Under the pieces are notes generated by a model that was not told where the DNA came from, searched no databases, and saw nothing but the letters and a program-made list of their open reading frames with translations. Positions 14,912 to 58,153 of a stretch of DNA of 64,000 nucleotides are shown here, one piece after another (positions within the stretch are counted from its first letter, which is position 1; each line of letters begins with the position of its first letter). Made by a program: the position numbers and the translations under genes. The stretch is from Candidatus Bathyarchaeota archaeon (GTDB lineage: Archaea; Thermoproteota; Bathyarchaeia; Bathyarchaeales; Bathycorpusculaceae): assembly GCA_963739305.1 (NCBI GenBank), contig CAVTZU010000028.1:1-64000 (forward strand), given 5' to 3'.

Positions 14912-15095
14912 AAAACAGATATTTTCTCAAATACACTCTTGCTGAGGCTCGATCAGAAAACTTCTATAAACATCATTAATGCTAATGCCCCAAGGAATTC
15001 CATGGTAGAGAAACTCACCATATAAGTACAAACGTGACGTTAGTGATTTCGAGTCGAAAAATCTATGTGCAGGATGAGCAATTATGCACTCCTAA

Positions 15096-16022
15096 GTGGT
15101 CGTGAAAACGTTGGTTGAAGCTCCCGTTGAAGACAAACGTATCTCACTGAAAGAAGCAGTCCACCTTGTCCATGATGGTTCACACCTATTCTGGGGCGGC
15201 TTCGGCTTCCAACGCCCACCCATGGCCTTCGCACACGAACTAGTCAGACAGAAGAAGAGAGACCTCACACTGTACACGTGCGGCTCAGAAATGGACCTTG
15301 ACATACTTTCAGGTGCCAAGGTTGCATCTCGGTATGAGCTCGCGTTCTACGCGATAGAAGGAATAGGTCTGGTGCCGAACATTCAGAGACGAATCCGAGA
15401 AGGAGCAATTGAAATAGAGGACTACTCGAATTTGGCAATGGTAATGCGACTTTTAGGCGGTGCTCTTGGAGTCCCATTCATGCCGCTTAAGAGTATGCTC
15501 GGCACGGACATGCTTGCCAAAAAGAAGTTCAGGGAAAAGAAGGCAGAAGTCTTCAACTGTCCTTTTACTGGAGAAAAAGTGGTTCTTGTCCCGTCAGTCC
15601 GTCCAGATTTTAGCATAGTTCACGCTCAACGTGTGGATCGAGAAGGAAACGTTCAGATAGATGGAATCAAAGGAGAAGACGTGGAAGGTGCAAGAGCAGG
15701 AAAAAAAGTAATTGTACTGGCCGAAGAAATTGTGGATAGCGAGTTTATTCGATCCCAACCCGACCAAACGGTCATTCCAAACATCTACGTTACTCATGTC
15801 GTCGAGTGTCCTTGGGGTTCTTACCCAATGATGGTATACAACTACTACGATTACGACATGGAGCACGTACGAATGTACTATGATCAATGCAAGACAGAAG
15901 AGGGATGGCAAAAATACTGTGAAGACTACGTGACCAGCGTCAACAGTCACACAGAGTATTTGCAGAAAATCGGGATGGAACGACTCATGAAGCACAAAGC
16001 CCGAAAACCATTTCCATACTAG
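15096..16022 (+). CDS. CoA transferase subunit A (glutaconate CoA-transferase-like)
   Basis: GGFGFQRPPMAFAHEL, GVPFMP, CPFTGE, HAQRVDREGN. Confidence 0.88.
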   Translation: MVVKTLVEAPVEDKRISLKEAVHLVHDGSHLFWGGFGFQRPPMAFAHELVRQKKRDLTLYTCGSEMDLDILSGAKVASRYELAFYAIEGIGLVPNIQRRIREGAIEIEDYSNLAMVMRLLGGALGVPFMPLKSMLGTDMLAKKKFREKKAEVFNCPFTGEKVVLVPSVRPDFSIVHAQRVDREGNVQIDGIKGEDVEGARAGKKVIVLAEEIVDSEFIRSQPDQTVIPNIYVTHVVECPWGSYPMMVYNYYDYDMEHVRMYYDQCKTEEGWQKYCEDYVTSVNSHTEYLQKIGMERLMKHKARKPFPY

Positions 16023-16037
16023 GGAGGATCAAACGCA

Positions 16038-16835
16038 ATGACAAAGTACGCAAGACCTGAAGAATTCAACACGCTGGAGCTTATGGCAGTCTGCGGCTCC
16101 AGACAGATAAAGAATGGAGAAGTCGTTTTCATCGGAACAGGATTGCCGATGATCGCCGCTTTACTAGCTAAGAGAACCCATGCACCTGGGGCGAAGATTG
16201 TTTTTGAAGCCGGGTTCATAGATTCAAACGCCCGAGATATAGCCCTTTCAATCGCCGACTCGAGACTGGGTTGGCGAGCGTCCGGAGCAATAGGACTCCT
16301 TGAAACGCTGGGACTCATGCTTCAGGGGGGACACGTAGACGTCGGATTTGTGGGGGCAGCTCAGATTGACGAATTTGGCAACATAAACACGACATATATC
16401 GGGCCATTCGAAAAGCCCTCCGTGAGGCTGCCGGGTAGCGGAGGAGGAAATGACATAGTTTCCTCAGCCAAACGCATCGTAATAATAATGACTCATGAGA
16501 AGCGAAAAATGGTCAAGAAGCTCGATTACCTGACCAGTCCAGGCTACCTTGACGGACCCAAAGCAAGAGAAAACGCAGGCTTGATCGGAGGCGGACCGTC
16601 CCTTGTCGTTACTAACCTGTGCCAAATGGATTTTGACCAAGAGAAAAAACGCATCAGACTGGCCACGGTTCACCCAGGAGTCACCGTTGATCAGGTTCTC
16701 GAAAACTCTGGCTTCGACTTGATCACACCGAAAAACGTCCCAATCACAGACTTGCCAACGTGCGAGGAACTAGACTTGCTCCGAGCAATAGATCCAACAG
16801 GAATCTACATCCCAAGAACAAAGAATCCACGCTAG
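16038..16835 (+). CDS. CoA transferase subunit B
   Basis: FIGTGLP, FEAG, GAAQIDEFGNINTT, RLPGSGG. Confidence 0.88.
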   Translation: MTKYARPEEFNTLELMAVCGSRQIKNGEVVFIGTGLPMIAALLAKRTHAPGAKIVFEAGFIDSNARDIALSIADSRLGWRASGAIGLLETLGLMLQGGHVDVGFVGAAQIDEFGNINTTYIGPFEKPSVRLPGSGGGNDIVSSAKRIVIIMTHEKRKMVKKLDYLTSPGYLDGPKARENAGLIGGGPSLVVTNLCQMDFDQEKKRIRLATVHPGVTVDQVLENSGFDLITPKNVPITDLPTCEELDLLRAIDPTGIYIPRTKNPR

Positions 16836-16877
16836 ACCCGCAGTAAGAACTAGCAGGAACCTCTAACCAAGATCCAT

Positions 16878-16961
16878 CCACGAAAAAACCTGAGGGGTAG
16901 GATGTTTTAGACTGTTTGAAAACACTAAAAAACCACGTTGGTCAGTCCTTCACGCGCCCAT
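16878..16961 (+). repeat. ~84-bp intergenic element, copy A
   Basis: CCACGAAAAAA..GGGGTAGG.TGTTTTAGA..AAAACACT.AAAAACCA.GTTG..CAGTCC.TCAC.CGCCCAT; about 80% identical by eye to the reverse complement of 26216-26298. Confidence 0.9.
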
Positions 16962-16973
16962 ACTCTTCACTAA

Positions 16974-18308
16974 CTAACCAGGTGCCTTCGCCTGCGGCTG
17001 CACTAACTTAGGCTTCTGCTTCGTAACCTGCTCAACGATCCGCCAAAACTCTTCCTCGGTCCTACCCTTCCTCAAATCTTTCATCAACTTCTTAACCTGA
17101 TAGAAAGTCATCTGTGCTTCACCCTTGTCCAAAGCATCCTGAACCGCCCTCACCCTCTTCACGATCTCCTCAATCTGGAGCAGCGTAGCCCTAATTTCAG
17201 CCATCCGCAAGCGCTCCTCAACCACCTGCTTCCCCGTCTGCCGCCCAAGATGAAACTCCGTTTCCCTCCCAACAATCTCAGGCGGAAAAGGCTCAAAAAT
17301 AATCGGATTATCCACCATCGCCTTCAAATTCTCATCCATCTCATACGAAAACGCGTTTTCACCAATAATCGGCTTATGAAACTGAATAGGCAACGCAAAC
17401 GCCTTCTCAACCATCTGTGAAAGCCTATACAACTTCCCCAAGTCCACCCCGGTATCCACGTCATAAAGCAACTCCAACGCAGCACACACCTCCTCCAAAG
17501 GCGCACACCCAGACCGCTCACCGAAACCCGCAACGCTAGTAAACAGACAATCAACCCCCTCCTCCACAGCCGCCAGATTATTCGCCGTCGCCAACCCAAA
17601 ATCATTGTGACAGTGCACGCCCAACGGAACATCCTTCTTGAACAAGTCCCACAAACCATCCCTAACGTGAGAAACCAAATAACGCATCGACAACGGCCTC
17701 AAAAACCCAACCGTGTCCGCGATCACCAAACGATCAGCCCCAGCCCTGTACGCTGCTCCAAAGATCTCAAGAATCTCCTGCAACGGCGTCCGGGAACCAT
17801 CTTGAAGAACAAAATCAACCTTCAAACGATGCTTCTTCGCATACTCAACACACTCCACAGTGTCGGCAAGAACCTGCTTCTTACCCATCTTCAACCTGTA
17901 CCGCAACTGCAACTCATTAAACGCCGTAAAAATAGAAACCTCATCAACCCCACACTCAAAACACGTATCAACATCGCTCTTGAGAACACGCGCCAACGCC
18001 ACCAGACTCACCTGCTGAAAGCCCTCATTCGCGATCTTCTTCGCAGTACTCTTTTCCTCATCCGACAGCCCAGGAAAACCAACAGAAATCCTAGACACAC
18101 CCATCTCATCCATCATCTTAGCAAGCTTAACCTTCTCAACGTACGTCAAAAAGACGGCGGGTGCATGAACACCCTCATGCAAGGTCTCGTCCCAAACGAA
18201 AACCCTCTCAGGAAGCTTCGGAGGCAGGTTCTTCCTTAAATGGTTATAATTCGTAATCAGACCCTGAGCCTCAAGTTTTTTGAATATGGTTTTTCTCATA
18301 TGATACAC
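16974..18308 (-). CDS. homocitrate/isopropylmalate/citramalate synthase family protein with divergent active site
   Basis: DRE-TIM fold motifs ADTVG, HCHNDFG, GERSG, KPIIGENAF; DETLHEGVH replaces DxTLRDGEQ. Confidence 0.85.
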   Translation of the reverse strand: MYHMRKTIFKKLEAQGLITNYNHLRKNLPPKLPERVFVWDETLHEGVHAPAVFLTYVEKVKLAKMMDEMGVSRISVGFPGLSDEEKSTAKKIANEGFQQVSLVALARVLKSDVDTCFECGVDEVSIFTAFNELQLRYRLKMGKKQVLADTVECVEYAKKHRLKVDFVLQDGSRTPLQEILEIFGAAYRAGADRLVIADTVGFLRPLSMRYLVSHVRDGLWDLFKKDVPLGVHCHNDFGLATANNLAAVEEGVDCLFTSVAGFGERSGCAPLEEVCAALELLYDVDTGVDLGKLYRLSQMVEKAFALPIQFHKPIIGENAFSYEMDENLKAMVDNPIIFEPFPPEIVGRETEFHLGRQTGKQVVEERLRMAEIRATLLQIEEIVKRVRAVQDALDKGEAQMTFYQVKKLMKDLRKGRTEEEFWRIVEQVTKQKPKLVQPQAKAPG

Positions 18309-18463
18309 AACCCAACAACGCTGAACTTGGACTCACCTCTATTCTCACGACCGCTAATATAAAACTTACAAGAGAGACAAGCGACGCTCTCAATTTCATA
18401 GAACTCTGGAAAACCTTTTTAGCAAAATCATGAACTTAGTAAACCCACAACGTAGGTGGAAAA

Positions 18464-19330
18464 ATGACGGAAATCAGGAAGATAGCAGTTCTCGGCGCTG
18501 GACTGATGGGTCACGGAATTGCACAGGTGGCATCGCAAATCGGAAAGTATGAAGTGAACCTGAGAGATGTCGAACAACGCTTCATAGATGCTGGCATCAG
18601 CATGATAAAAGACAGTCTTCAACGATTTGTCAAGAAGGGTCAACTTTCGGAGGCAGATATGAAAGCGATAATGGCGAGAATTCACCCCGTGCTCGACCTC
18701 AAAGAAGCGGTTTCAAATGCGGACCTTATCATCGAAGCCATTCCCGAAAACCTGGAGCTAAAGAAAGCCACGTTTCGCGAAGTTGACGCTTATGCACCGA
18801 CTCACGCCTTGATAGTATCAAACACGTCCTCTGTGAGCATCACAGAGATGGCTTCATCAACCAAACGGCCTGAAAAAGTGTGTGGAATGCACTTCTTCAA
18901 CCCACCGCAACTCATGAAACTAATCGAAGTGATCAGAGGAGCCAAAACCTCTGATGAAACAGTTCACACAGTGCTCGACGTGGCACACAAGATGGACAAA
19001 GAGACCGTTCTTGTAAAGAAAGATAGCCCCGGATTCATCGTTAACCGCATACTCTTACCCGCCCTTAACGAGGCAGTAGCCCTCTACTGGGAAGAGGTCG
19101 CAGACAGAGATGATATCGACAAAGCCATAAAGCTCGGCCTCAACTGGCCCATGGGACCTCTGATGCTTCTCGACTACATCGGCCTTGACACAACGCTGGC
19201 GATCTCGGACGTGCTGACAAAGGAACTTGATCCCAAATTCCATGCCTCAACCGGACTCAAGCAAATGGTCAGAGCCCAACTCCTCGGCAGAAAGACAGGC
19301 AAAGGCTTCTATGACTGGACGCAGAAATAG
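18464..19330 (+). CDS. hbd: 3-hydroxyacyl(butyryl)-CoA dehydrogenase
   Basis: GAGLMGHGIA, SNTSS, GMHFFNP, GRKTGKGFY. Confidence 0.93.
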   Translation: MTEIRKIAVLGAGLMGHGIAQVASQIGKYEVNLRDVEQRFIDAGISMIKDSLQRFVKKGQLSEADMKAIMARIHPVLDLKEAVSNADLIIEAIPENLELKKATFREVDAYAPTHALIVSNTSSVSITEMASSTKRPEKVCGMHFFNPPQLMKLIEVIRGAKTSDETVHTVLDVAHKMDKETVLVKKDSPGFIVNRILLPALNEAVALYWEEVADRDDIDKAIKLGLNWPMGPLMLLDYIGLDTTLAISDVLTKELDPKFHASTGLKQMVRAQLLGRKTGKGFYDWTQK

Positions 19331-19347
19331 ACGAGGAGTCAACGCTC

Positions 19348-20130
19348 ATGGAGTTCAAAAACATCATCTTTGAGAAGAACCAAGGCGTGGCCACAATTAC
19401 CCTGAACCGACCTGAAGCCTTAAACGCTTTCAGCAGTGAAGTGATCGAAGAAGTGCTCGGAGCAATCGAAGACGTCAAAAAGGACGAAGACATTCGAGTT
19501 CTCGTGCTCACAGGAGCGGGCGAGAAAGCGTTCTCCGCTGGAGCGGACATAAAGGCCATGGCAGGAATGACAGCCCTCAAGGCAAGGGAACTTTCATTAA
19601 TGGGTGAAAAACTGTGCACGGCACTCGAAAACTTGGATATGCCTGTCATAGCAGGAATCAACGGCTACGCATTAGGCGGCGGAATGGAAGTTGCAATGGC
19701 TTGTGATCTGCGAATAGCCTCTGAGACTGCGAGAATGGGACAGACCGAAATCAACATAGGACTGATACCAGGATGGGGAGGAACTCAACGACTGACAAGA
19801 CTGGTAGGCATGACAAAGGCAAAAGAACTCGTTTTCACCGGAAGAATCATTGACGCAAAAACAGCGGAACAGTTGGGAATCCTTAACATGGTTGTTCCAC
19901 AGGACAAACTTAAGGAAACTCTACGGCAATTCGGAGCTGAATTGGCCTCTAAAGCTCCCGTGGCCCTTAAAGTTGCTAAGGCGTTGATCACCAAAGGGGC
20001 AAACATCAGTCTAGAATCAGCGCTGGAACTGGAACGGGAAGGCTTCGGCGTCGTTGGGTCCACTGAAGATCTGAAAGAAGGAGTTTTGGCCTTTACAAAC
20101 AAGAGAAAACCTGAGTTCAAGGGCAAGTAG
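19348..20130 (+). CDS. crt: enoyl-CoA hydratase (crotonase)
   Basis: LNRPEALNA, AFSAGADI, ALGGGME, GQTEINIGLIPGWGGTQRL. Confidence 0.93.
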   Translation: MEFKNIIFEKNQGVATITLNRPEALNAFSSEVIEEVLGAIEDVKKDEDIRVLVLTGAGEKAFSAGADIKAMAGMTALKARELSLMGEKLCTALENLDMPVIAGINGYALGGGMEVAMACDLRIASETARMGQTEINIGLIPGWGGTQRLTRLVGMTKAKELVFTGRIIDAKTAEQLGILNMVVPQDKLKETLRQFGAELASKAPVALKVAKALITKGANISLESALELEREGFGVVGSTEDLKEGVLAFTNKRKPEFKGK

Positions 20131-20274
20131 ATCGACTCTCATTTTTTCTTCAAATCCTGCTTTTTGAAGTTTCCCATCTGGGGAATTCGTCAACAGTTTC
20201 AAAAATGATATATTGAGGTAGGCTCGATGCCTAGTTCAAACAAAGGATCTGAATCTAGAAAACGGTGAAGAAAG

Positions 20275-20967
20275 TTGAAGTTCATAATCTTCGGACCCCC
20301 GGGTTCAGGAAAGGGAACTTATGCCTCGAGATTGCAAAACAAGCTGGGTGTAGACGTAATCGCTATGGGAGACATCTTCAGGGAGATAATGAAAGAAGAC
20401 TCGGCGTTAGGAAGAAAAGTAAAGGGATTCGTGGAGAAGGGACAGCTAGTACCTGATGATGTAGTCATTGAGGTTCTGAAGCAGCGTCTCGCCAGATCGA
20501 CCACGAAGAAAGGCTTCATTTTGGATGGTTTTCCGCGAACCATCGACCAGGCCAAAGCTTTGAATGGGCTTGTTGAAGTTGATGGAATAATACAGCTTAC
20601 TGTTCCAGATTGGATAATAATTGAGAGACTTTCAAGTCGAAGAATATGCGAAAAGTGCGGCGAAGTCTACAACATTCGTTTCTTAAGACCTAAAACCGAA
20701 GGAATCTGCGACAAATGCGGCGGACGACTGTACCAGCGATCTGACGACACACCAAAAGTAATCAAAGACCGAATTGGCGTTTACGAACGCCAGACTGAAC
20801 CAATCCTGCAATACTACGAGAAAGAGAAGATACCATTCGTCGAGTTCAAATGCGAGACACTTGACTTGCCGCCCGAGGTGGCCGTCGAAAGTATAATGAA
20901 ACAGCTTAAACAGCTGCAGGCTAGTTTGATTAGCAAATCAACAATAAAGAAAATATTGGGAGATTAG
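20275..20967 (+). CDS. adk: adenylate kinase (Zn-LID type)
   Basis: GPPGSGKGT, LDGFPRT, CEKCG...CDKCG LID. Confidence 0.95.
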   Translation: MKFIIFGPPGSGKGTYASRLQNKLGVDVIAMGDIFREIMKEDSALGRKVKGFVEKGQLVPDDVVIEVLKQRLARSTTKKGFILDGFPRTIDQAKALNGLVEVDGIIQLTVPDWIIIERLSSRRICEKCGEVYNIRFLRPKTEGICDKCGGRLYQRSDDTPKVIKDRIGVYERQTEPILQYYEKEKIPFVEFKCETLDLPPEVAVESIMKQLKQLQASLISKSTIKKILGD

Positions 20968-20983
20968 TGCAGAAAGGATGCTG

Positions 20984-22428
20984 TCAGCAGTTGCCTATTT
21001 CTTTTTTGAACGCGGTTGAAAGGTCTTTTTCCCAATTATCCAAGCTTCTAAGTTTTCCAAGGAAGAATCTAAGTACGGGTGGTTCGGAAACAAATTTCAG
21101 ACCTTTCACAAGCTTCTTGTGTGCATATAGCCATTTTATTCTGTCGATTGCGTATTCCATATGTGACACGGTGAATACTCTTCTCGGCAATGCGATTCTT
21201 GTCAATTCAATGTCTGCGTATACTTCTTTTCCGTCTTTGTCTCTGTCCATTGAAATTGTGCCTCGCTCCATGCTCCGAATGCCTGAGGCAATGTACAATG
21301 CGGCGGCTAACGCTCCTGCAGGATACTGGGATTGCGGGACGTGTGGCAGGAACTTCATAGCGTCTAGGTGGCAAGCAAGTCCGCCAGGTGGAGTAACGAC
21401 TGGAATTCCGGCTTTAGATAGTTTGTTGACAAAGTACTTAATCTGTTCAACTGAGCAACCAGCGACGTCTGGGTCAACCATTTCGCGCATTCCAACGCCC
21501 ATCGCGCCGATCTCTCTCATTGACATTCCTCCGTAGGTGAAGAAACCCTTCGTAAACTGGTAGCCATGGTTGGATCTGTTCGAAAAGTTTAGGTTGTTAG
21601 TTGCTATGCATCCTCCTCTGACAGATGTGTTCTTTCTGCCGCTCATGTAGTAGATGTCTGCAAAGTGAGCACATCTCTTTGACTATTTCTGCAACCGTCT
21701 TGTTTTCATATCCCTTTTCACGTTGCCTAATCAAGTACGCGTTTTCTGAGATGAGGCTCCCGTCTATAACTAGGAGCAACTCGTTTTCAACGCATATCTG
21801 CTTTATCTCTTTAAGATTCTTCATGGAGAAAGGTTGGCCGCCGATCAGATTCGTTGTGGCCTCCATCCGAACGAACCCTATCTTCTCTTTGCCGTATTTC
21901 TTGAGCACATCTTTCAGTTTCTTAGGATCCATACATCCCTTGAAAGGGTTCGTACTTTCGGTCTCCAATGCATCGTCATAATAGATTTCGAGGACTTTCA
22001 TCCCTTGGAGCTCAATGTGCGCCTTGGTTGTTGTAAAGTGGTAGTTGGTTGGAATTACCCCGTTCTGGCTTGGCATAGACTTTTGCAAGAAGATGTTCGG
22101 CTGCCCGTCCCTGATGGACGTTCATTACATACTTGTATCCTAGAACGTCTTCTACTGCCTTTGCAAACTCGTAAAAAGTCATGCTTCCCGCGTAAGCGTC
22201 ATCAACCTTCATCAGAGCCGCGTATTGGTTGTCGCTCATAGCGTTTACACCGCTGTCTGTGAGACAATCCAGGAACACGTCTTTTGTCTTCATCAGGAAG
22301 GTGTTGTATCCCGCCTCCTCTATCGCTTTGACTCTTTCGTCGATCGGCACCAGTTGAATCTTCTGCACCATTCTTGCCTTGTGCATTTCGATAGGGATTT
22401 CTTCCCCTGTGGATAGTTTTATGGACAT
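20984..22428 (-). pseudogene. tryptophanase / tyrosine phenol-lyase family gene split by indels (pseudogene or assembly error)
   Basis: three consecutive ORFs carry LTDSG..DDAYAGS..HQGRAAE, TNYHFTTT..GGQPFS and MSGRK(PLP Lys)..TYGGM..RIALPRRV..LRFF. Confidence 0.88.
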
Positions 22429-22597
22429 ACCGTAGACCTCGAGAGTTTGCTGTTATCAGCCGTTGATTATTATAATGCTTTCGGTGCTGCGTCTTTAGCC
22501 AAACTTTGTGTCTCCTAGCGACCACAACCTATATGTGAAGCTTCAGATTGTCAAGAATTTCAAGCGACTTGGGGAAAAACTGTTGCCAGATTTGAAG

Positions 22598-24460
22598 ATG
22601 CTGTTGCAGGATTTGGCTGGAAAACGACTGCTTCTTTTGGGAAACGAGGCCATAGCTCGTGGTATTCTTGAAGCAGGAGTGGGCGTTGTTACGACGTACC
22701 CTGGAACGCCAGCGTCGGAAATCGGTGACTCTATCTCAGAAATTGCCACAGATGCTGGTTTGTACATGGAGTATTCAGTCAACGAGATGGTTGCTGTTCA
22801 GGTGGCCGCGGGCGCCGCAAACTGCAAAGTCAGAGCGCTCACCGCTATGAAGCACGTTGGACTGAATGTTGCTGCTGACCTTGTGATGACGTTGGCTTAT
22901 ACTGGAGTGAGAGGAGGCTATGTGATTGTTACCGCAGACGATCCTGAATGCTATAGCTCGCAGAATGAACAGGACAATCGATTCTATGCGTTGCTTTCAA
23001 ATCTGCCGTGTCTTGAGCCTTCTGATCCGCAAGAAGCTAAGGATATGACGGTTTATGCTGTTGAGATTTCTGAGCAGCTTGAACTGCCCGTGCTGTTGAG
23101 GACGACGACGCGTGTGAATCACATGAGGGCGCCGGTCACGTTTGGGAAATTGAAGAAACCTGATCTGCGTGGCGAGTTTGTCAGGGATCTGAAACGGTTG
23201 AATATGGTTCCCGCTTTTTCAAGGCCGAAACATGCGGTTCTGTTGAGGCAGAGTGGAAAGGCCAAGGAGATCAGCGAGGCATCACCTTTCAACATGATAG
23301 TGAGGAAAGGCGGACAAATAGGGATAATTTCTTCAGGCGCTGCTTTCAACTACGCGGTTGAAGCTGCAGGTGTGCTCGGCTTGGATTCGGGAATTTTGAA
23401 GCTTGGCATGACGCACCCACTGCCTGAAAGACTGATCATTAGTTTTCTCAAGAATTTCAGGAAAGTCATCGTTGTCGAAGAGCTTGAGCCTTTCTTGGAA
23501 ATGCAGATTAAAGCGATTGCAAAAGACTTTGCCCCTCACGTTGAAGTCTGCGGGAAGATGGGCAGGGAGTTCTTTTCCCGAGAGGGTGAACTTTCAACGC
23601 GGTCAGTGGCCATCGGCCTGGCAAAAGCGACCGGAAGAAAATTGCCTGCTTATTTTCAGGAGATTGATGCAAAGTTTGCTGAGGCAACCAGAGATTTGCC
23701 GTCTAGACCGCCGATACTATGTGCTGGGTGTCCGCATCGAGCGTCCTTCTACACGATAAGGAAAGTGTTCGGGGATAAGGCGCTTTATCCCACAGATATC
23801 GGTTGCTATGCGCTCGGGATTTCGTCTCCTCTGAGTGTTGGAGACATAATGATTTGCATGGGTGCGAGTGTTGGTGTTGCTCAGGGAGTGAGCAGGGTAA
23901 CGGGTAGGGATACGATCGCGATTATTGGGGACTCAACGTTTTTCCACGCTGCGATGCCGGGGTTGGTGAATGCAGTCTATAATAACAGCAAGATCGTGGT
24001 GATTGTGTTGGATAATCAGGCTACCGCTATGACTGGACATCAGCCTCATCCTGGCACCGGGACGACAGGAATGGGTGTGACGTCGGAGAAGATTCTTGTT
24101 GAAAGGGTTGCTGAGGGTTGTGGGGTTAAGTATGTTAGGGTGGTGAATCCGTTTGAGACCAAGGCGGCTGCCAGAGTGTTGAGGGAAGCGGTTAAGCTGT
24201 CGGGGCCTTCGGTTGTTGTTTTTCGTTCGCCTTGTACGTTGATGGATCTTAGAGAAAGGCGTCGGAAGGGAGCAAAGGTTGTGCCTGCGAAGATTTCTGA
24301 GAAGTGCAATGGCTGCTTGGCTTGTGTCAAGCTGCTTGCTTGTCCAGCTATCGTGGTGGAAGCAGAAAAGCCGGTGATCGACGAGAACTCTTGCAGTGGA
24401 TGTGGGTTGTGTATCTCCGTTTGTCCGAACAAGGCGATAGAGGGGAGTTGTGCGGAATGA
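22598..24460 (+). CDS. iorA: indolepyruvate:ferredoxin oxidoreductase alpha subunit
   Basis: LLGNEAIARG, YPGTP, MKHVGLNVA, CAGCPH, IGDSTFFH, C-terminal ferredoxin; start uncertain. Confidence 0.93.
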   Translation: MLLQDLAGKRLLLLGNEAIARGILEAGVGVVTTYPGTPASEIGDSISEIATDAGLYMEYSVNEMVAVQVAAGAANCKVRALTAMKHVGLNVAADLVMTLAYTGVRGGYVIVTADDPECYSSQNEQDNRFYALLSNLPCLEPSDPQEAKDMTVYAVEISEQLELPVLLRTTTRVNHMRAPVTFGKLKKPDLRGEFVRDLKRLNMVPAFSRPKHAVLLRQSGKAKEISEASPFNMIVRKGGQIGIISSGAAFNYAVEAAGVLGLDSGILKLGMTHPLPERLIISFLKNFRKVIVVEELEPFLEMQIKAIAKDFAPHVEVCGKMGREFFSREGELSTRSVAIGLAKATGRKLPAYFQEIDAKFAEATRDLPSRPPILCAGCPHRASFYTIRKVFGDKALYPTDIGCYALGISSPLSVGDIMICMGASVGVAQGVSRVTGRDTIAIIGDSTFFHAAMPGLVNAVYNNSKIVVIVLDNQATAMTGHQPHPGTGTTGMGVTSEKILVERVAEGCGVKYVRVVNPFETKAAARVLREAVKLSGPSVVVFRSPCTLMDLRERRRKGAKVVPAKISEKCNGCLACVKLLACPAIVVEAEKPVIDENSCSGCGLCISVCPNKAIEGSCAE

Positions 24461-25065
24461 ATGAGTTCAACATAGTTCTTGCGGGCGTCGGGGGGCAGGG
24501 TACGCTTCTGGCTGCTGAAGCCTTAGGAGTGGCTGCCGTCAAGGAGAACTTGAATGTCAGGGTCAGTGAAATTCACGGTATGGCTCAGCGGGGCGGTGCG
24601 GTTGTGACGATGGTGAGGATAGGAGAGGATGTTGTGGCGCCCACCGTGTTGGAGGGGCGGGCGGATTTGTTGGTCGGGTTTGAGCCGCTCGAGACGTTGC
24701 GCAACCTGCGGTATGCTTCAGAGAAAACTCTTGTGATAATGAGTACGGAGAAAATTCCGCCGGTGGAGTTGGCGGCTAAGAACTTGAAGTATCCGGTCGT
24801 TGACGAGATTGTTAGGAGAGTGCGTTTTTTCACTGAGAACATTGTGGTTGTTGATGTGGTGCGGCTTGCGTGTGAGGCGGGGAGTGTTCTTGCGCGGAAT
24901 GTTGTGTTGTTGGGTGCTGCTGCTGGTACGGGGAAGTTGCCGTTGAAGAAAGAGAGTCTTGTTGAGGCTGTTAGTGAGCTTGTTCCGGTGAAAACTTTGA
25001 AGGTTAATCTGGCGGCTTTTGAGCTTGGTTTTGAGTGCGTCGAGGATAAGCTGGCGAAAGCTTAG
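24457..25065 (+). CDS. iorB: indolepyruvate:ferredoxin oxidoreductase beta subunit
   Basis: GVGGQG, EIHGMAQRGGAV, NVVLLGA; ATG at 24457 overlaps the iorA stop. Confidence 0.92.
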   Translation: MNEFNIVLAGVGGQGTLLAAEALGVAAVKENLNVRVSEIHGMAQRGGAVVTMVRIGEDVVAPTVLEGRADLLVGFEPLETLRNLRYASEKTLVIMSTEKIPPVELAAKNLKYPVVDEIVRRVRFFTENIVVVDVVRLACEAGSVLARNVVLLGAAAGTGKLPLKKESLVEAVSELVPVKTLKVNLAAFELGFECVEDKLAKA

Positions 25066-25427
25066 GTTTGCTGGGAGGTTTGAGGTGTGGTTTGGGTCTT
25101 TTCGTGTTCGAGTATTGCTTTGAGTATGTTTTGGAAGAGTTTCATGTCTGAGACGTCGACGACTGGGATTTGGAAGCTCTTGTCGATTTCGTAGAGTTTT
25201 TCGTATTTTGGGTGTTTGACGTAGCAGATTTGGCTTATTGGAAATTCTTTGTTTTTTATTTCTTGTTCGAAGGATTTTTCGTACACTTCGAGGCAGAGTA
25301 AGTAGCCGTTTATCCAGTACAGTCTGCTTGCGCCGTAGGTAGCGGCGCACCAGGCTATGTTGTCTTTGGATCGGTTGTCGGCGCCTAGGATGATGACTTT
25401 TTTCGTGGGCGAGATTTCTACGTTCAT
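25062..25427 (-). CDS. hypothetical protein
   Basis: 121-aa ORF 6 bp downstream of XPF on the same strand. Confidence 0.7.
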   Translation of the reverse strand: MNVEISPTKKVIILGADNRSKDNIAWCAATYGASRLYWINGYLLCLEVYEKSFEQEIKNKEFPISQICYVKHPKYEKLYEIDKSFQIPVVDVSDMKLFQNILKAILEHEKTQTTPQTSQQT

Positions 25428-25433
25428 TTTGGT

Positions 25434-26144
25434 TCACTCCGTGAATGGGGTGTTGAGGACTTCTTTAGCTTTGCTGCTGATTTTTGGTCCGAGTCCGTGG
25501 ACTGTTTCTGGCCAGTTGTCGACGTTTATCATGGCGTTCAGTGGAGTTTGGTAGCATTTGAGGATTGATAGGGCTTTTTCTCGGCCGACGTTTGGTAGGC
25601 TTGCGATGAGATAGAGTTGGGCGTCGGTTGTGGTGTCGACTTTTTTGAAGGGGTGGACTGTGGGGGTTCTTTTTTCTGTGATTTGTTCTTGGCGGGCGGC
25701 TGTGTAGAGGAAGTCGATGGTTTCTTTGTATGATGTTGTGGTTATGATGGGCATGCCGTTGCGGGCGAGGTTGAACATTGCGCCCCAGACTGAGGCGGGT
25801 TGGATGCGGCTGTACTTGTAGATTATTGGTAGGTAGCCTTCTAGGAGTAGGAGGGATCGTGGGTAGACTTCTTTGAGTTTGAAGATTTGTTCGAAGAGGA
25901 AGCGGCGGGTGAGGGTGTAGACGAAGTCTTGGACGGTTTTTCTTTCGACGGCGCAGACGTCGGAGAGGACGTAGTCGCCTTTTTCGAGGGTTGCTGTTTT
26001 GATGCAGGCGCCGCGTTCTTGGAGGCCTTTGACGATTTTGTGTGCGGTGCTTGCTTCGCGGCTGTCGACGATTATGGTGGGTTGTTGGGGGTCGGTGGGT
26101 TTTTTTTCTTTCAGGAACGGGAGGAGGCTTTCGGCGTTGGACAT
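25434..26144 (-). CDS. xpf: XPF/ERCC4 structure-specific endonuclease (short form)
   Basis: IIVDSRE, GDY...VERKT, C-terminal HhH (LPNVG, VHGLGP). Confidence 0.9.
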   Translation of the reverse strand: MSNAESLLPFLKEKKPTDPQQPTIIVDSREASTAHKIVKGLQERGACIKTATLEKGDYVLSDVCAVERKTVQDFVYTLTRRFLFEQIFKLKEVYPRSLLLLEGYLPIIYKYSRIQPASVWGAMFNLARNGMPIITTTSYKETIDFLYTAARQEQITEKRTPTVHPFKKVDTTTDAQLYLIASLPNVGREKALSILKCYQTPLNAMINVDNWPETVHGLGPKISSKAKEVLNTPFTE

Positions 26145-26215
26145 GTGTTCAGCTCACAGTGGTATTGCTCAATCGATGGCGTCTTATTTGCTTTTGCAGA
26201 AGGACACGTTCGGTG

Positions 26216-26298
26216 ATGGGCGGGTGAGGGACTGGTCAACATGGTTTTTGAGTGTTTTAAGCTCTAAAACACCCTACCCCCCGGCCTTTTTTTCGTGG
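26216..26298 (-). repeat. ~84-bp intergenic element, copy B (inverted)
   Basis: reverse-complement match to 16878-16961; internal perfect IR GTGTTTTA-AGCTC-TAAAACAC. Confidence 0.9.
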
Positions 26299-26451
26299 GC
26301 GGTGCTGTGGCTGGGGCTGTTCTAGGGGGTTTTGATGGTTTTGTCGGTGGTTTCCTGTTGCTTTTGCATGTTGAATCTCTCAATTTGACCTCGTGTAGCG
26401 AATAAATATTAGCGACGTCGTGTAGAGGTTGGTTCAAACTGGGGAATCGGA

Positions 26452-26814
26452 TTGGAGAAGATCATATCGTGCTGTGGAATCGTGTGTTCTGATTGTCCTA
26501 CTTACTTAGCGACTAGGGCGAACGATGACGCGGAAAGGAAGAGAGTTGCGGAGCTGTGGACGAAGGAGTACGGTCGTCCATTCAAGCCTGAAGATATAAA
26601 CTGTGACAGCTGTCAATCAAGGGGGACACGAGTGTTCGGCTACACTGGAATATGTGAGATCAGGAAGTGTGCACAGGGGAGAGCCCTGAAGAACTGCGCC
26701 TATTGTGATGATTACAAGTGCGAGAAGCTGTCGAAACTTCACGAGCAGGCGCCTAAACTGAAAGAAACGCTTGATCAGGTCAGAAAGAGCCTGGGCAAAG
26801 ACACGAAGCATTAG
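26452..26814 (+). CDS. DUF3795 Cys-rich protein
   Basis: CGIVCSDCP, CDSC, CEIRKCA, NCAYCDDYKC. Confidence 0.85.
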   Translation: MEKIISCCGIVCSDCPTYLATRANDDAERKRVAELWTKEYGRPFKPEDINCDSCQSRGTRVFGYTGICEIRKCAQGRALKNCAYCDDYKCEKLSKLHEQAPKLKETLDQVRKSLGKDTKH

Positions 26815-26898
26815 CTCGCAAACAAAGCTGGACGCGAGTTTCCGGAAAGATAAACACAAATGAAGTGGAGAATAAGTGGAAGCAGATTTTTTCCGCGT

Positions 26899-27990
26899 CT
26901 AGAAAGCCGTGAAGCCACTGACTGTCTGCTTGTCAAACCTCTTGATCAATTCTAGCGTCAACTTTATCGCGTTCTCAACGTCGTCGAAGCTCAAGATGCC
27001 GACGTGTGAATGAATATGCCTCGTCGGCGCGCTTATCACGATGCTGGGACAACCGGCGCGACTCATGTGAATCCTGCTTGCGTCGGTTCCGCCCATCGCC
27101 ACCAACGAGAGTTGATAGGGAATTTTGGCTTTCTTCGCCGTATCGATGACGAACTGTTTGAGTGCTTGATTAGGAATCATGGAGCTGTCGAAGGTCAAGA
27201 TTGATGGCCCTTTGCCCATTTTGGTAGGTGCCTCTTGTGGCTGCACTCCAGGGACGTCGCCTGCAATGTCCACTTCCAAAACGATGGCTACGTCCGGATC
27301 TACCATGTGAGCTACTGTTGCTGCTCCTCTCGCACCGACCTCTTCCTGAACCGTGGCTGCTCCGTACACGGTGTTAGGATGCTTGATCTTCTGCTCTGCG
27401 AGTCGGCGCACGACTTCCATCGCGATGAACGCGCCTATCCTGTCATCAAAGGCTTTCCCCATCCCAAGCTTTCCGCCGCGAATCGTCGAGAAGGCGGAGA
27501 ATGGCACGACGGGGTCACCTATTTTCACGCCCATACTCTCGGCGTCTTTCTTGCTTGTCGCACCGATGTCAATGAACATGAATCTCTTTTCAACCACCTT
27601 CTTCGCTTCATCAGGAGGCAACAGGTGCGGCGGTTTTGCGGCGATGACGCCTGGAATATCTCCTTTCTCTGTTCTGACGACAACGCGTTGAGAGAGAAGT
27701 ACTTGGTCCCACCATCCGCCTAAAGGACTGAATGTGAGGAAACCCGTCCGATCTTCGATGCCGGAAATCACGAAGCCGACCTCGTCGATGTGTCCTGCGA
27801 GCAGAACGCGAGGTTGCTCGGAAGAGCCTTTCTGCGTAAAAATGACTGAACCCAATTTGTCGGTCATCACTTCGTCTGCATAACTCTTGACTGACTTCTT
27901 GACGATCGCTGCCGTTTCAAGTTCAAAACCAGCAGGTCCGAATGATTCAAGCATCTCCTTGAGAATGCTCAGAGATTTCTTGTCAACCAT
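26899..27990 (-). CDS. M42 family aminopeptidase (TET-like)
   Basis: GHIDEVG, KAFDDRIG, QEEVG, GGTDA, RHIHS. Confidence 0.95.
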   Translation of the reverse strand: MVDKKSLSILKEMLESFGPAGFELETAAIVKKSVKSYADEVMTDKLGSVIFTQKGSSEQPRVLLAGHIDEVGFVISGIEDRTGFLTFSPLGGWWDQVLLSQRVVVRTEKGDIPGVIAAKPPHLLPPDEAKKVVEKRFMFIDIGATSKKDAESMGVKIGDPVVPFSAFSTIRGGKLGMGKAFDDRIGAFIAMEVVRRLAEQKIKHPNTVYGAATVQEEVGARGAATVAHMVDPDVAIVLEVDIAGDVPGVQPQEAPTKMGKGPSILTFDSSMIPNQALKQFVIDTAKKAKIPYQLSLVAMGGTDASRIHMSRAGCPSIVISAPTRHIHSHVGILSFDDVENAIKLTLELIKRFDKQTVSGFTAF

Positions 27991-28143
27991 TGTTTCACCA
28001 ACGACCCATCATTCGATTTGCCCTTTCGGTATTTATGTCCTTTGCAAATCATCGATCGCGTGTCGAACGGATAAGGGTCATTGCCTTGAGGGTCGGACAA
28101 GTATTATACGCAACCTCTACTAACTTCAGGCAGTCTCAGTGAG

Positions 28144-28710
28144 ATGTTGCGATTGCATCACAAGACCTTCTATGGCGATGAGACGGAAAGGAGAAAGTGG
28201 CAGAACCCTGATTCCATACTTGCGGACATTGGATTACGTCCAGGCTTGACTTTCGTCGATGTTGGCTGTGGAGACGGCTTCTTTGCTCTTCCTGCTGCCA
28301 GAATTGTAGGCAAAGAAGGAAAAGTCTACGCATTGGATTTGGATGCAGTAGCCATCTCTTCACTGAAAGAAAAAGCCTCGAGGAGCAATCTGACGAATGT
28401 CGAAACTCGGGTCGGTGCCGCTGAGGATACTATCTTCTGTGAGTCATGTGCTGATGTCTTGTTTTTCGGAATCGTTCTGCATGACTTTGATGATCCAGCG
28501 AAAGTGCTCAAAAACGCTGCTAGAATGATTAAACCGAGCGGCCGACTCGTCGATCTAGACTGGAAGAAGCAGCCCATGAGTTTCGGGCCGCCGGAGAATA
28601 TCAGGTTTAGTGAAGAGGAAGCGGCAAAGTTGATTTTCAAAGCAGGCTTCAAGGTTGAACAGAAGAGAGAAGCCGGTCCGTTCCATTATGTAATAACTGC
28701 GAAGCCTTGA
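28144..28710 (+). CDS. class I SAM-dependent methyltransferase
   Basis: VDVGCGDG, KPSGRLVDLDW. Confidence 0.9.
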   Translation: MLRLHHKTFYGDETERRKWQNPDSILADIGLRPGLTFVDVGCGDGFFALPAARIVGKEGKVYALDLDAVAISSLKEKASRSNLTNVETRVGAAEDTIFCESCADVLFFGIVLHDFDDPAKVLKNAARMIKPSGRLVDLDWKKQPMSFGPPENIRFSEEEAAKLIFKAGFKVEQKREAGPFHYVITAKP

Positions 28711-28831
28711 CTGGTTATGACAGGGAGATAGGAACGCTCGCGCTAAGAAAAATCGATTTAACGTTCTCTAGGGCGCGCTACGATGAAAGACTTATAGAAG
28801 TTCCCTGGAACGAAAGGTTCACAAAAGCACT

Positions 28832-28981
28832 TCATGTCATATTAAGGTACATAGGAACAATCCCACCAGGAGGGCGCATCCACAGTCCCCTTGTATCAAT
28901 TAATATTATGAAAACAGCAACGGCAAGAAAGACTACAAAGGCGGATAAGGCAATTAAGAGTATTACGTCATTTCTTCTCAC
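28832..28981 (-). CDS. small single-TM protein (49 aa)
   Basis: GTG start, MRRNDVILLIALSAFVVFLAVAVFIILIDT... Confidence 0.4.
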   Translation of the reverse strand: MRRNDVILLIALSAFVVFLAVAVFIILIDTRGLWMRPPGGIVPMYLNMT

Positions 28982-29086
28982 GCTGGATTGATGTTCCCCT
29001 TCAAGTGTCGGATTTTCTCCGTCTGTCACGCCTGCTGCTCCCCGATTACACAATGAGTTCCACTCACTCTTTTCTTTTTCCATTCC

Positions 29087-29115
29087 TTGGGTTTGGGGGT
29101 AAAATTCTGTCCCAA
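29087..29115 (-). repeat. degenerate inverted copy of the GGATAAAACTTTACCCC element
   Basis: reverse complement TTGGGACAGAATTTTACCCCCAAACCCAA versus TTGGATAAAACTTTACCCCCAAACCCAA at 32887. Confidence 0.7.
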
Positions 29116-56978: not shown

Positions 56979-57002
56979 AAAACAATGAAGAAAATAAACA
57001 GC

Positions 57003-58042: not shown

Positions 58043-58153
58043 TGAAAGATTTCCTCTCGCTACGTCTAATCACAAGTCTAATATTTAAACTGAACTACGA
58101 TGGTCGCAGCCCTCTTTTGAAGAAAAATGCCACGTTATTCCTTGTTTGCCGAT

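Follow-up and report, generated by a model that had tools for sequence, protein, structure and literature searches.

In vertebrate mitochondria, where strand-displacement replication leaves a strand single-stranded for some time, C>T and A>G changes nearly saturate synonymous sites on one strand. Other systems act from a cis site or a repeat and have one-sided or local effects of kilobase range that decay over 1–3 kb: immunoglobulin somatic hypermutation is somatic and affects both strands, Chi is not known to leave a compositional footprint at Chi/RecBCD hotspots, and fungal RIP introduces C>T changes on both strands, lowers G+C and leaks from repeats into flanking genes. We know of no MITE that skews its flanks. 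In bacteria and archaea, replication leaves the leading strand G+T-rich; this asymmetry is ascribed to deamination in whichever strand is exposed in single-stranded form (PMC10030826), and the same review describes the non-template strand as G+T-rich under transcription. Here we describe short islands of strand bias anchored to a dispersed repeat in the genome of an uncultivated peat/soil archaeon (a Bathyarchaeia MAG). We found no description of repeat-anchored strand-bias islands in the literature, and these islands suggest an undescribed directional DNA process.

The window, a stretch of 64,000 nt from one contig of this genome, contains two islands facing each other. The 84-bp element reported there by the first-pass annotation is real: positions 16878–16961 (+) and 26296–26216 (−) are 81% identical over 84 nt. 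Copy 1 is degenerate (core 16879–16951, + strand; nhmmer E = 6e-13), and copy 2 is full length (about 150 nt; 26215–26374, − strand; core 26297–26226; E = 3e-21). Each island lies 3' of its own copy on the element-sense strand, so polarity flips with element orientation, as proposed. In island 1 (16952–18400) the + strand, which is element-sense, is A/C-rich, with a GC skew of −0.29 to −0.44 and an AT skew of +0.16 to +0.22. It contains an HMGL-like/homocitrate-synthase-like gene (16974–18308, − strand; Pfam HMGL-like); its stop codon falls about 23 nt beyond the copy 1 core, and its third positions, read on the gene strand, are A5 C9 G50 T36. In island 2 (23500–26214) the + strand is G/T-rich and the − strand, here element-sense, is therefore A/C-rich (+ strand GC skew +0.29 to +0.39; AT skew as low as −0.38). 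The 60-nt counts given for these zones were exact: 17941–18000 is A20 C24 G7 T9 (A+C 44/60), 24901–24960 has G24 T19 (G+T 43/60) and 26041–26100 has G28 T20 (G+T 48/60). In 1-kb windows, + strand GC skew reached −0.44 at 17.0–18.0 kb and +0.37 to +0.39 at 24–26.5 kb, and the sign of AT skew matched that of GC skew in both islands. The keto skew of the two islands peaked at 0.316 and 0.396, against a genome-wide SD of 0.099 and 0.1/99.9 percentiles of −0.37/+0.40 (9144 windows of 1 kb). The spacer between the islands (18464–22428) is unskewed, with keto and GC skew near background and ordinary third positions. It carries genes for a 3-hydroxyacyl-CoA dehydrogenase (Pfam 3HCDH match), an enoyl-CoA-hydratase-like protein, an adenylate-kinase-like protein and a beta-eliminating lyase, the last broken into at least three ORFs, two of which match Pfam Beta_elim_lyase. 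The skew had also been described as strongest near the element; it does decay with distance, but it has no peak there and instead forms a plateau across the first 1–1.5 kb.

The bias follows the DNA strand rather than the genes. Island 2 spans genes of both strands, as the annotation had noted: on the + strand, the 3' part of an iorA-like gene (22508–24460; Pfam TPP_enzyme_C/POR_N; third positions of the second half A15 C15 G37 T33) and iorB (24457–25065; Pfam POR; A7 C12 G47 T33), and on the − strand, orf121 (25062–25427; A39 C50 G9 T2) and XPF (25434–26144; Pfam ERCC4; A35 C59 G5 T1). Across islands, element-sense third positions were equal in the two gene orientations (A.36 C.48 G.11 T.05 in co-oriented genes; A.35 C.46 G.12 T.07 in anti-oriented genes). 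Because gene orientation has no effect on element-sense composition, the skew is not a codon bias or a bias from transcription of the resident genes. The skew spans gene borders, fading gradually. Genome-wide, 21 genes have a G/T-rich coding strand (K3 ≥ 0.5), and 15 of them are anti-oriented and no more than 4.5 kb downstream of a copy. Third positions were balanced in the XPF orthologues of 11 relatives and the HMGL orthologues of 7 congeners; the skew thus arose on this lineage, after the element-bearing lineage separated from its congeners.

These findings bear on whether the islands formed in place at all. Integrase genes, typical mobile cargo, share an A/C-rich composition across several genomes, and one IMG/VR contig bears the element, as might be expected if the genes came from a mobile element whose own genome is skewed. 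Two other readings of this kind are selection of synonymous sites for an A/C-rich, unstructured RNA and an assembly artefact. However, the viral copy has no island, the island genes are syntenic housekeeping genes of ordinary identity to congeners (XPF 83–86%, HMGL 74–81%), the anti-oriented genes hold the complement of the preferred codons, the same islands recur in independent assemblies and runs, and the skew fades gradually across gene borders. We regard all three readings as scarcely credible; the balanced XPF and HMGL orthologues and the orientation-independent third positions largely refute them.

We found the same association throughout the genome, in which nhmmer detected 28 copies. 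Against a null of 20,000 random 1.5-kb windows, 13 of 28 copies exceeded the 99th percentile downstream of the element (binomial p = 3e-19), compared with 0 of 27 upstream, which bears out the proposed co-location and polarity. The oriented mean keto skew was −16 to −22 per 100 nt across 0 to +1.5 kb, fell off to the background level at about +3 kb, and was flat upstream of −500. Island tracts are 1.5–3.5 kb long, with at least 25 islands per 2.3 Mb; genes in other islands include ThyX, PheRS beta and an M48 peptidase. Six more degenerate copies (nhmmer E = 0.02–1.6) each stood at the head of a correctly polarised island, and 20 copies in two sister species (G003 and G004; this genome is G000) gave a matching oriented profile. 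Metagenome contigs supplied 37 de-duplicated copies that have 1 kb or more of sequence downstream; in that downstream sequence, A+C was at least 0.60 in 21 and at most 0.42 in none, and upstream A+C reached 0.60 in 2 of 41 copies. In 400 kb of a congener without the element (G001), the 99.9th percentile was 0.22, compared with 0.40 here, and there were only two weak islands.

A>G and C>T changes have accumulated on the strand that meets the element with its 3' end; seen from the element-sense strand, they are T>C and G>A. Changes of this kind on one strand are the spectrum that single-strand deamination would give. Residual values on the element-sense strand were 0.13 for T/(T+C) and 0.25 for G/(G+A); A>G has gone at least as far as C>T. 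Very probably, these are polar tracts beside a dispersed repeat that are nearly saturated for A>G and C>T, blind to gene orientation, of post-split origin and still largely intact in their encoded proteins. They resemble mitochondrial asymmetry in having a defined cis start, a gradient with distance and near-saturation, but they are chromosomal, multi-copy and short, their A>G changes are no less complete than their C>T changes, and the exposed mitochondrial strand has the polarity of a nascent strand leaving the origin, whereas here the G/T-rich strand runs toward the element. A kilobase-range effect anchored in cis is shared with somatic hypermutation, Chi/RecBCD hotspots and RIP leakage; here, G+C is unchanged (0.49–0.53), and the change involves one strand, is inherited and is compatible with intact proteins. 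Replication asymmetry, which this genome also displays around an orc1/cdc6 gene, likewise makes G exceed C and T exceed A on one strand, but it is chromosome-scale, reaches a skew of only about 0.05–0.13 here and switches only at origins and termini, whereas the islands span 1.5–3.5 kb, reach 0.3–0.45 overall and 0.7–0.9 at third positions, and are anchored to a repeat. Transcription asymmetry and GC-skewed R-loop regions at promoters and terminators are, like the islands, kilobase-scale, polar, started in cis and blind to codons; however, island polarity follows the element rather than genes, the magnitude is far higher, and the sign, described as G+T-rich on the non-template strand (PMC10030826), is reversed for transcription leaving the element.

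The element itself is a dispersed repeat of about 150 nt that is intergenic in all 28 copies of the genome. Alignment of the 28 copies with their flanks placed the limits of homology at about −77 and +72. Copy 1 has an A-run (16883–16888), a G-rich block (16894–16901), then a TTTTAGA block; its right-hand motif is CCACGTTGG. Copy 2 begins with TCAACATG (26374–26367, − strand), followed by an A/C-rich arm, an A7 run (T7 on the + strand, 26287–26293), a G-rich block, TTTTAGAG and the inverted CATGTTGA (26244–26237). The core is conserved between copies and the left arm is variable, as expected of a binding site. In its size, intergenic location, copy number, lineage-specific subfamilies (in G000, G003 and G004) and inverted motifs (TCAACATG / CATGTTGA), the element resembles MITEs and small intergenic repeats; unlike in MITEs, the right-hand inverted motif is internal, with homology running about 15–25 nt past it.

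The tie between element and skew is strong but not exclusive. Of the two kinds of counterexample that the annotation had named, each was found in part: islands of equal strength occur without the element at integrase genes, some glycosyltransferases and a few others, and about 9 of the 28 copies have no island despite similar-looking cores. In every element-less island the coding strand is A/C-rich, which hints at a link with transcription direction, and the integrase islands begin just 5' of the start codon and end at a T-run past the stop. These features would suit a portable promoter, an explanation that we consider rather unlikely. The right half of the element would be a candidate archaeal core promoter, with TTTTAGA as TATA box, an A-rich block about 10 nt before the start and initiation in CATGTTGA; transcription would leave the element and stop stochastically at 1.5–3.5 kb whatever the gene orientation, and in these archaea the non-template strand of heavily transcribed DNA would become A/C-rich, for instance if the template were re-synthesised with errors or repaired less well. 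TTTTAGA indeed lies about 24–31 nt upstream of a conserved ATG/TTGA across an unconserved spacer (counted by eye), and the TATA-like hexamers TTTAAA, TTTTAA and CTTAAA are over-represented between −45 and −18 of this genome's genes, as is TTTTAG, by 2.2-fold. The highly expressed EF-1alpha, L11, NusG and SAM synthetase genes lean the same way (for example, A36 C38 G19 T7), although ordinary translational selection can give A/C-ending codons in such genes, island K3 falls to −0.87 compared with −0.47 for EF-1alpha, and the 16S rRNA leader and trailer have no such skew. Element-sense A+C dropped by 0.074 at T5+ runs, compared with 0.037 at A5+ runs and 0.040 at random sites (n = 17, p about 0.01–0.02), and a T5+ run lay within 260 nt at 6 of 9 island-less copies compared with 3 of 25 island copies. 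These T-run tests are largely circular, however, because islands are T-poor; the metagenome contrast (3/12 versus 2/25, p = 0.30) was not significant, island ends defined by GC skew alone lay a median of 514 nt from a T5+ run (458 nt by chance), and three islands run on past T5 runs at +71 to +182. A promoter also does not predict the same-sign upstream leak or the A/C-rich left arm, and the sign would be the reverse of every transcription-associated asymmetry described, in which the non-template strand is G+T-rich (PMC10030826).

Transcription in the other direction would restore the sign. If transcripts running toward the element halted at its T-run (T7), G-rich RNA would form stable R-loops close to the transcript's 3' end, deamination would strike the non-template strand that they displace, and the rising G-skew would favour further R-loops, leaving the G+T-rich non-template strand of the classical pattern (PMC10030826). 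The sharp island edge at oligo-T, the conservation of the A7 run in G000 copies and the anti-oriented gene ends lying within about 25 nt of the element in 10 of 19 island copies all fit such R-loops. However, co-oriented genes open the other 9 of 19 islands, each of which would need a strong antisense promoter 2–3 kb away, and T-runs on the G/T strand (T8 at 26100–26107; T6 near 25252) should end transcripts early; on the element-sense strand, the 6 kb downstream of island copies contain 354 A5+ runs and 132 T5+ runs. The bias increases toward the element (+0.28 in the first half of iorA, +0.87 in XPF) instead of declining along the presumed transcript, the A-run is just 4–5 nt long in G004 copies, and the genes involved are ordinary metabolic genes. 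We consider a terminator with R-loop formation very improbable as the explanation.

Adjacent copies within 25 kb of each other comprised 6 convergent, 0 divergent and 3 tandem pairs (p = 0.01), and one metagenome contig carries a convergent pair 10.3 kb apart. Convergent pairs are the arrangement of a Ter-type trap, and a protein on the asymmetric core could halt forks arriving from the island side, so that behind the stalled fork the lagging-strand template, which is the strand running to the element, stays single-stranded, or nascent DNA is resected, and that strand becomes enriched in G/T. The sign fits, and copies facing the permissive way would have no island without differing in sequence. 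This genome has a legible replication skew, which turns cleanly from − to + at an orc1/cdc6 gene (C11:52.8 kb), and the window's pair lies where background GC skew turns from + to −. The same readout counts against a polar fork barrier: by eye, background skew agrees at about 5 and conflicts at about 8 of 13 copies, the island of the copy at C11:127 kb faces away from the forks of the clear origin on that contig, and the copy at C17:52.6 kb is in the blocking orientation toward a second orc1/cdc6 gene, yet has no island. Archaeal Okazaki fragments are short, so kilobase-long single-stranded DNA behind an arrested fork is unexpected. About 34 polar barriers per 2.3 Mb would be costly, and the integrase islands would stay unexplained; a barrier of this kind is improbable.

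We tentatively favour a break or entry site within the element followed by polar loss of the element-sense strand, a reading drawn from geometry and sign that we hold to be possible rather than probable. The conserved core would be a protein recognition site where breakage of, or entry into, the element-sense strand recurs, and this strand would then be removed 5'→3' for kilobases downstream and for a few hundred nucleotides upstream. The complementary strand would be left single-stranded, its A and C deaminating, or would serve as the sole repair template; re-filling of the gap would fix these changes, and lesions on the element-sense strand would be erased. The sign fits, since 5'→3' resection from the element would be expected to leave the G/T-rich strand single-stranded. 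A+C at −240 to −80 was 0.58–0.61 in island copies compared with 0.51–0.56 in island-less copies, and metagenome copies had 55% A+C at −500 to −250; this same-sign upstream excess fits short-range removal of the same strand the other way. G+T excess on an exposed strand is a known signature of single-strand deamination (PMC10030826). Several observations count against strand breakage. The element folds weakly as single-stranded DNA (folding z −0.5 to −1.7, with no strong hairpin), about 9 of 28 copies with similar cores have no island, the excess of convergent pairs (6 of 9) is not predicted, and the link of element-less islands with transcription direction is left unexplained. Spontaneous deamination favours C, yet here A>G is no less complete than C>T. 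No nickase candidate linked to the element was found: tyrosine recombinases are plentiful yet spread among relatives (26 of 31 genomes), RVT_1 had no match in any of the five genomes searched, and a TnpB-type family gave nothing above the cut-off, with one sub-threshold match in G004.

Repeated strand loss of this kind would act as a one-directional ratchet, reaching 90–99% saturation without a large rise in the overall mutation rate. Measured to an outgroup congener, the HMGL protein distance of G000 exceeds that of its sister group by only about 1–2 points; because divergence is barely raised, the island process may be bias rather than hypermutation. A strain of about 93% identity has the same islands, and its XPF island differs by about 3%, compared with 7–9% in the flanks, which, together with the low HMGL divergence, argues for a ratchet rather than hypermutation.

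The strand asymmetry that the first-pass annotation had reported in the window was reproduced exactly in its 60-nucleotide counts (A+C 44/60 at positions 17941–18000; G+T 43/60 at 24901–24960 and 48/60 at 26041–26100). In 1-kb windows, GC skew of the + strand fell to −0.44 at 17–18 kb and rose to between +0.37 and +0.39 at 24–26.5 kb. AT skew changed in the matching sense in both islands, and G+C remained steady across them at 0.49–0.53. The window is the opening 64 kb of contig C28 in a genome of 2.32 Mb and 36 contigs. Keto skew, computed as (G+T−A−C)/L, had a standard deviation of 0.099 over the 9144 one-kb windows of that genome, and the island peaks of 0.32 and 0.40 compare with a 99.9th percentile of 0.40. 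The metagenome runs that contain most of the stretch are from peat; of the 20 runs listed for it, none was of RNA. At 57000–59500, GC skew went down to −0.26 without a matching AT skew, and the island signature was absent there.

Both islands lie beside copies of a dispersed repeat. The 84-bp element proposed earlier is real and forms the core of this repeat, which is about 150 nt long. Iterated nhmmer searches identified 28 copies in the genome, all 28 of them intergenic and either solitary or spaced 5–20 kb apart. Alignment of the copies revealed, in the sense orientation, (T)CAACATG as the left end; then some 75 nt of arm, with an A+C content near 72% but a sequence that differs among copies; a run of A residues, A7 in this genome; the G-rich block G6-TA-G3; a TTTTAGA(G/C) block 3′ of the G-rich block, followed by about 12 unconserved nt; a right motif, CAAAANC-CATGTTGA, the inverse of the left end; and a right tail of a further 15–25 nt that is kept within subfamilies. 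The copy beside the first island (16879–16951, + strand) is degenerate, and that beside the second lies at 26297–26226 on the − strand.

We compared the repeat with known classes of element. An Rfam scan of 16–27 kb (E ≤ 1) gave no match to either window copy, only a chance snoRNA-like match elsewhere, and RNAalifold found no consensus RNA structure among 27 copies in either orientation. With neither a covariance-model match nor a conserved structure, the repeat does not qualify as a structured RNA family. Single-stranded DNA folds of both window copies were no better than those of shuffled sequences (z −0.5 to −1.7). MITEs carry terminal inverted repeats, a target-site duplication and a cognate transposase; in the repeat, short inverted motifs were seen. 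Integron attC sites have an RYYYAAC inverse core and a GTTRRRY core at their ends, fold as imperfect palindromes into a long single-stranded hairpin and stand in arrays beside an integron integrase. By eye, the ends of many copies are compatible with these cores (left ..TTCAAC.., right ..GTTGAGT or GTTGAAC), and GTTGACC is incompatible; an attC hairpin or array was ruled out because only the 8-bp end motifs pair, the folds are weak and the copies stand alone or 5–20 kb apart. Elements of the IS200/IS605-TnpB type have subterminal hairpins, and their host genome encodes TnpB or TnpA. Judged by the TnpB family and by folding, the repeat is not of this type: PF07282 had no match over the cut-off in five genomes and single-stranded folding is poor. 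Diversity-generating retroelements and retrons require a reverse transcriptase gene and leave adenine-specific changes between template and variable repeats. We found no RVT_1 match in the source genome, in the two element-bearing sister species (G003 and G004) or in G001 and G002, and both kinds of transition occur on one strand over kilobases, so retro-mutagenesis of this kind does not apply.

To relate skew to the repeat, we aligned all 28 copies in one orientation. Mean keto skew was near zero upstream of −500, −24 per 100 nt in the bin containing the arm and −16 to −22 over 0 to +1.5 kb, and it regained background by about +3 kb. The islands thus start sharply at the element, extend to one side only, hold a plateau for 1–1.5 kb and then decay. 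Measured against 20,000 random 1.5-kb windows (99th percentile of A+C, 0.622), the downstream side exceeded the 99th percentile at 13 of 28 copies (binomial p 3e-19) and the 95th at 18, and the corresponding upstream counts were 0 and 3 of 27. Six more degenerate matches (E 0.02–1.6) each bordered an island on the side and with the polarity that their orientation predicts. Counted by eye, the left neighbour gene is co-oriented with the element at 12 of 18 island-bearing copies versus two of nine island-less ones; this left gene is usually unskewed.

The same pattern was found beyond the source genome. All genomes compared are metagenome-assembled (MAGs). The repeat family had eight matches in G003, 21 in G004 and few or none in 26 other relatives. 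When twenty copies fetched from the two sister species were oriented alike, the profile of the source genome recurred, mean skew lying at −13 to −25 between 0 and +2.25 kb; by eye, about 11 of them have a clear island. The element-free congener G001 served as a negative control: over 400 kb its 99.9th percentile was 0.22, and only two islands, both weak, were present. A pattern scan of metagenomes matched at least 120 stretches, from which 80 loci were taken; removal of copies with near-identical flanks kept 61 of 82. In this de-duplicated set, A+C was 0.60 or more downstream of 21 of the 37 copies with at least 1 kb of sequence there and 0.42 or less at none, and upstream it reached 0.60 at only 2 of 41. 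The element pattern also matched one viral stretch: a 22-kb IMG/VR contig classed as viral (L157) carries a copy, with skew on neither side.

The bias is located at synonymous sites, and its direction is set by the DNA strand and not by the gene. Third positions, read on each gene's own strand, were A5 C9 G50 T36 in the HMGL-like gene (−) of the first island; in the second island they were A7 C12 G47 T33 in iorB (+), A39 C50 G9 T2 in orf121 (−) and A35 C59 G5 T1 in XPF (−). Genes neighbouring the islands had ordinary third positions, and codon positions 1 and 2 within islands were shifted only slightly. In the +90 to +1500 interval, taken over every island copy, third positions on the element-sense strand were A.36, C.48, G.11 and T.05 in genes co-oriented with that strand and A.35, C.46, G.12 and T.07 in anti-oriented genes, which on their own strand therefore use G/T-ending codons (A.07, C.12, G.46, T.35). 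Because the two gene classes are alike on the element-sense strand, translational codon-usage bias does not explain the islands. Nor does known transcription-associated strand asymmetry, since polarity tracks the element and the non-template strand of XPF is A/C-rich. From this composition the changes are the two transitions: the element-sense strand has gone from T to C and from G to A, which reads as A>G and C>T on the complementary strand. Residual bases in the islands showed general TA avoidance only, with no deaminase-like neighbour context.

In 11 relatives with no element nearby, third positions of XPF were A8–28, C22–28, G22–42 and T20–30, and HMGL had balanced third positions in seven congeners. 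Judged from these orthologues, the islands are a derived state. The genes affected are housekeeping genes, encoding ERCC4/XPF, POR, an HMGL-like protein, ThyX, PheRS beta, an M48 peptidase, FKBP and Fe-S oxidoreductases. The HMGL protein lies about 1–2 points farther from an outgroup congener than its sister group does, and the unskewed neighbour gene gave much the same result; XPF carried 53 lineage-specific nucleotide changes versus 23–35 on comparable terminal branches, about twice as many. A related strain (about 93% identical; contigs of run X6 from another study) has the islands in common with the source genome, and the two differed by about 3% inside the XPF island (25181–26251) versus 7–9% in the flanks and the rest of the region (14002–25209 and 26263–29092). 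The modest protein change and the strain data would be better explained by a process with strong directionality that is at equilibrium or close to it than by ongoing random hypermutation. The strain's counterpart of the first window copy is unchanged in length and has diverged in sequence. Foreign origin, selection or artefact as the source of the islands is hardly tenable: synteny and the orthologues exclude it, as do the complementary codons used in anti-oriented genes and the recurrence in independent assemblies.

We then considered skewed DNA across the genome, using a set of crude ORF picks (1992 genes, 77% of the genome). A G/T-rich coding strand (K3 ≥ 0.5) was found in 21 genes, 15 of which are anti-oriented and lie no more than 4.5 kb downstream of a copy; the usual codon preference of the genome cannot account for such genes. 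Nine other genes with G/T-rich coding strands were weak (K3 0.45–0.60). Strong islands with no detectable element occur at C28:104001–106500, outside the window on the same contig, and at C15:85751–89000, C17:104251–105750 and C11:148501–150000. All genes in these four have an A/C-rich coding strand (glycosyltransferase, secreted repeat protein, aminotransferase). Several tyrosine-integrase genes (Pfam Phage_integrase) also form sharp islands of about 1 kb, with an extremely A/C-rich coding strand (for example, A52 C42 G4 T3), that terminate at a T-run after the stop codon. These were seen in the source genome (C25:17964–18764, C26:10877–11962, C15:5005–5919, C15:106319–107104 and C10:6122–6796) and in the relatives G024 (locus L138), G001 (L139) and G008 (L142). 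Neither an element copy nor a shared motif was found near the skewed integrase genes, and the edges of the nine weak genes and the regions upstream of five skewed integrases had nothing in common that would indicate a second element family. Integrases occur in 26 of 31 relatives, which rules out their distribution as a correlate of the element. Some skewed integrase genes are frameshifted, and one begins within a tRNA-like sequence. The claim of the first-pass annotation that skew is tied to and polarised by the element was thus upheld, but not as an exclusive tie: in addition to these element-less islands, about nine of the 28 copies, members of subfamilies with longer common flanks (−195 to +184), have no island. 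Skew islands without the element and copies without polarised skew had both been named in advance as observations against the association; each occurs in part, yet the association is not undone.

Many element-less genes also have an A/C-rich coding strand. Highly expressed ones, among them the genes for EF-1alpha, L11, NusG and SAM synthetase, lie at K3 about −0.5 and are less extreme than the integrase genes. The non-template strand of highly expressed genes and of the element-less islands has an island-like composition, as might be expected if the element were a portable promoter. Archaeal core promoters comprise a TATA box centred at about −26 to −27, an A/T-rich proximal element at about −10 and a pyrimidine–purine initiator, and by eye the conserved blocks of the repeat are spaced like these three parts. 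However, TTTTAG was only 2.2-fold enriched among local TATA-region hexamers, versus 7–11-fold for TTTAAA-type hexamers; the islands are far more skewed than the EF-1alpha gene; and the flanks of the 16S rRNA gene are unskewed. Tests on T-runs as terminators (island end against the first T5+ run, drop in A+C across T5+ runs, and early T-runs at island-less copies) were suggestive at best and largely circular, because the islands are T-poor. The sign is also opposite to the G+T richness of non-template strands described in PMC10030826. We consider a promoter within the element somewhat unlikely. The single 16S gene (C17:31979–33472) has protein-coding ORFs within a few hundred nucleotides on each side, and from these ORF picks a directly adjoining 23S gene appears to be absent.

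Replication skew is readable in this genome. At about 52.8–55 kb of contig C11, an orc1/cdc6 gene lies at a clean negative-to-positive switch of background GC skew, likely a replication origin. A switch at an origin or terminus is a sign change that lasts for tens to hundreds of kilobases on each side, and the islands, unlike the C11 switch at about 55 kb, regain background within 1.5–3.5 kb. Neighbouring copies face each other far more often than expected: adjacent copies are convergent in six of nine pairs and divergent in none (p 0.01). The convergent pairs are C7 12241/21652, C23 19664/29197, C28 16879/26297 (the window pair), C36 60080/67801, C22 9478/28296 and C18 88935/109718; three are spaced 9.41–9.53 kb, and a metagenome locus (L183) has a convergent pair 10.3 kb apart. 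Ter-like barriers are oppositely oriented around termination zones, with the blocking face towards the incoming fork, and the window pair sits at a + to − change in background skew. Against a polar fork barrier, orientation relative to background skew was, by eye, compatible at about five copies and contrary at about eight, and both cases near orc1/cdc6 genes fail. We regard such a barrier as improbable.

Of the two strands of an island, the one rich in G/T has its 3′ end against the element. An excess of G+T is described as the outcome of deamination on exposed strands in PMC10030826. The observed sign would be obtained if the G/T-rich strand were left single-stranded, re-synthesised with G·T mispairs or favoured in mismatch resolution. 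Transcription towards the element with R-loop formation would also have the classical sign, but it would need distal antisense promoters at half of the islands and transcripts that cross many T-runs, and we judge it very improbable. On account of the sign we favour, tentatively and at less than even likelihood, a break or entry site in the core followed by polar removal of the element-sense strand. A protein would recognise the conserved core, and the element-sense strand, broken or entered there, would be stripped away 5′→3′ for kilobases; limited removal of that strand in the opposite direction might produce the same-sign leak seen 100–400 nt upstream. Several points count against this break model: no nuclease was found for it, A>G change in the islands is no less complete than C>T, the convergent pairs are left unexplained, and the element-less islands follow gene orientation. 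Mechanisms not yet conceived hold about a quarter of the probability.

Among known phenomena, replication skew, mitochondrial strand asymmetry and transcription or R-loop skew come closest, as do polar cis-acting sites, of which somatic-hypermutation promoters and Chi are examples. None of these joins a dispersed repeat, kilobase-long one-sided tracts, near-saturated synonymous sites and indifference to gene orientation, and full-text literature searches, judged at the level of titles and abstracts, gave no description of repeat-anchored skew islands or of this element. We suggest that the islands are a local strand asymmetry produced by a polar DNA transaction, and there is a considerable probability that the system behind them is of a new kind. 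It is possible, although on balance doubtful, that Bathyarchaeia have a dedicated element-targeted transaction in which a protein recognises the core and opens one strand, and polar removal and re-synthesis, or strand-biased repair, rewrites every free site over 2–3 kb. Such a system would do in nature what engineered targeted mutators do, at anchored sites and with heritable effect; housekeeping genes could be recoded by it, and convergent pairs might delimit chromosomal units of about 10 kb. If the process acts in situ, synonymous sites would preserve, as a fossil record, a polar DNA transaction of a major group of uncultivated archaea, giving its start point, the strand touched, its reach and its carriage by a mobile repeat. 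Nicking, priming, transcription and stalling on archaeal chromosomes, otherwise out of reach of tests, would then become testable through the islands.

The islands distort statistics of codon usage, GC skew, horizontal transfer and binning, and in these genomes local skew is no guide to an origin or terminus. Anti-oriented essential genes, PheRS beta and HMGL among them, are pushed into the codons that are least preferred. Within the unskewed spacer between the two window islands, a gene for a beta-eliminating lyase (tryptophanase-like; 20984–22428, − strand) is broken into overlapping ORFs, at least three in number, and two of these match consecutive parts of the Pfam family; it is probably a frameshifted pseudogene.
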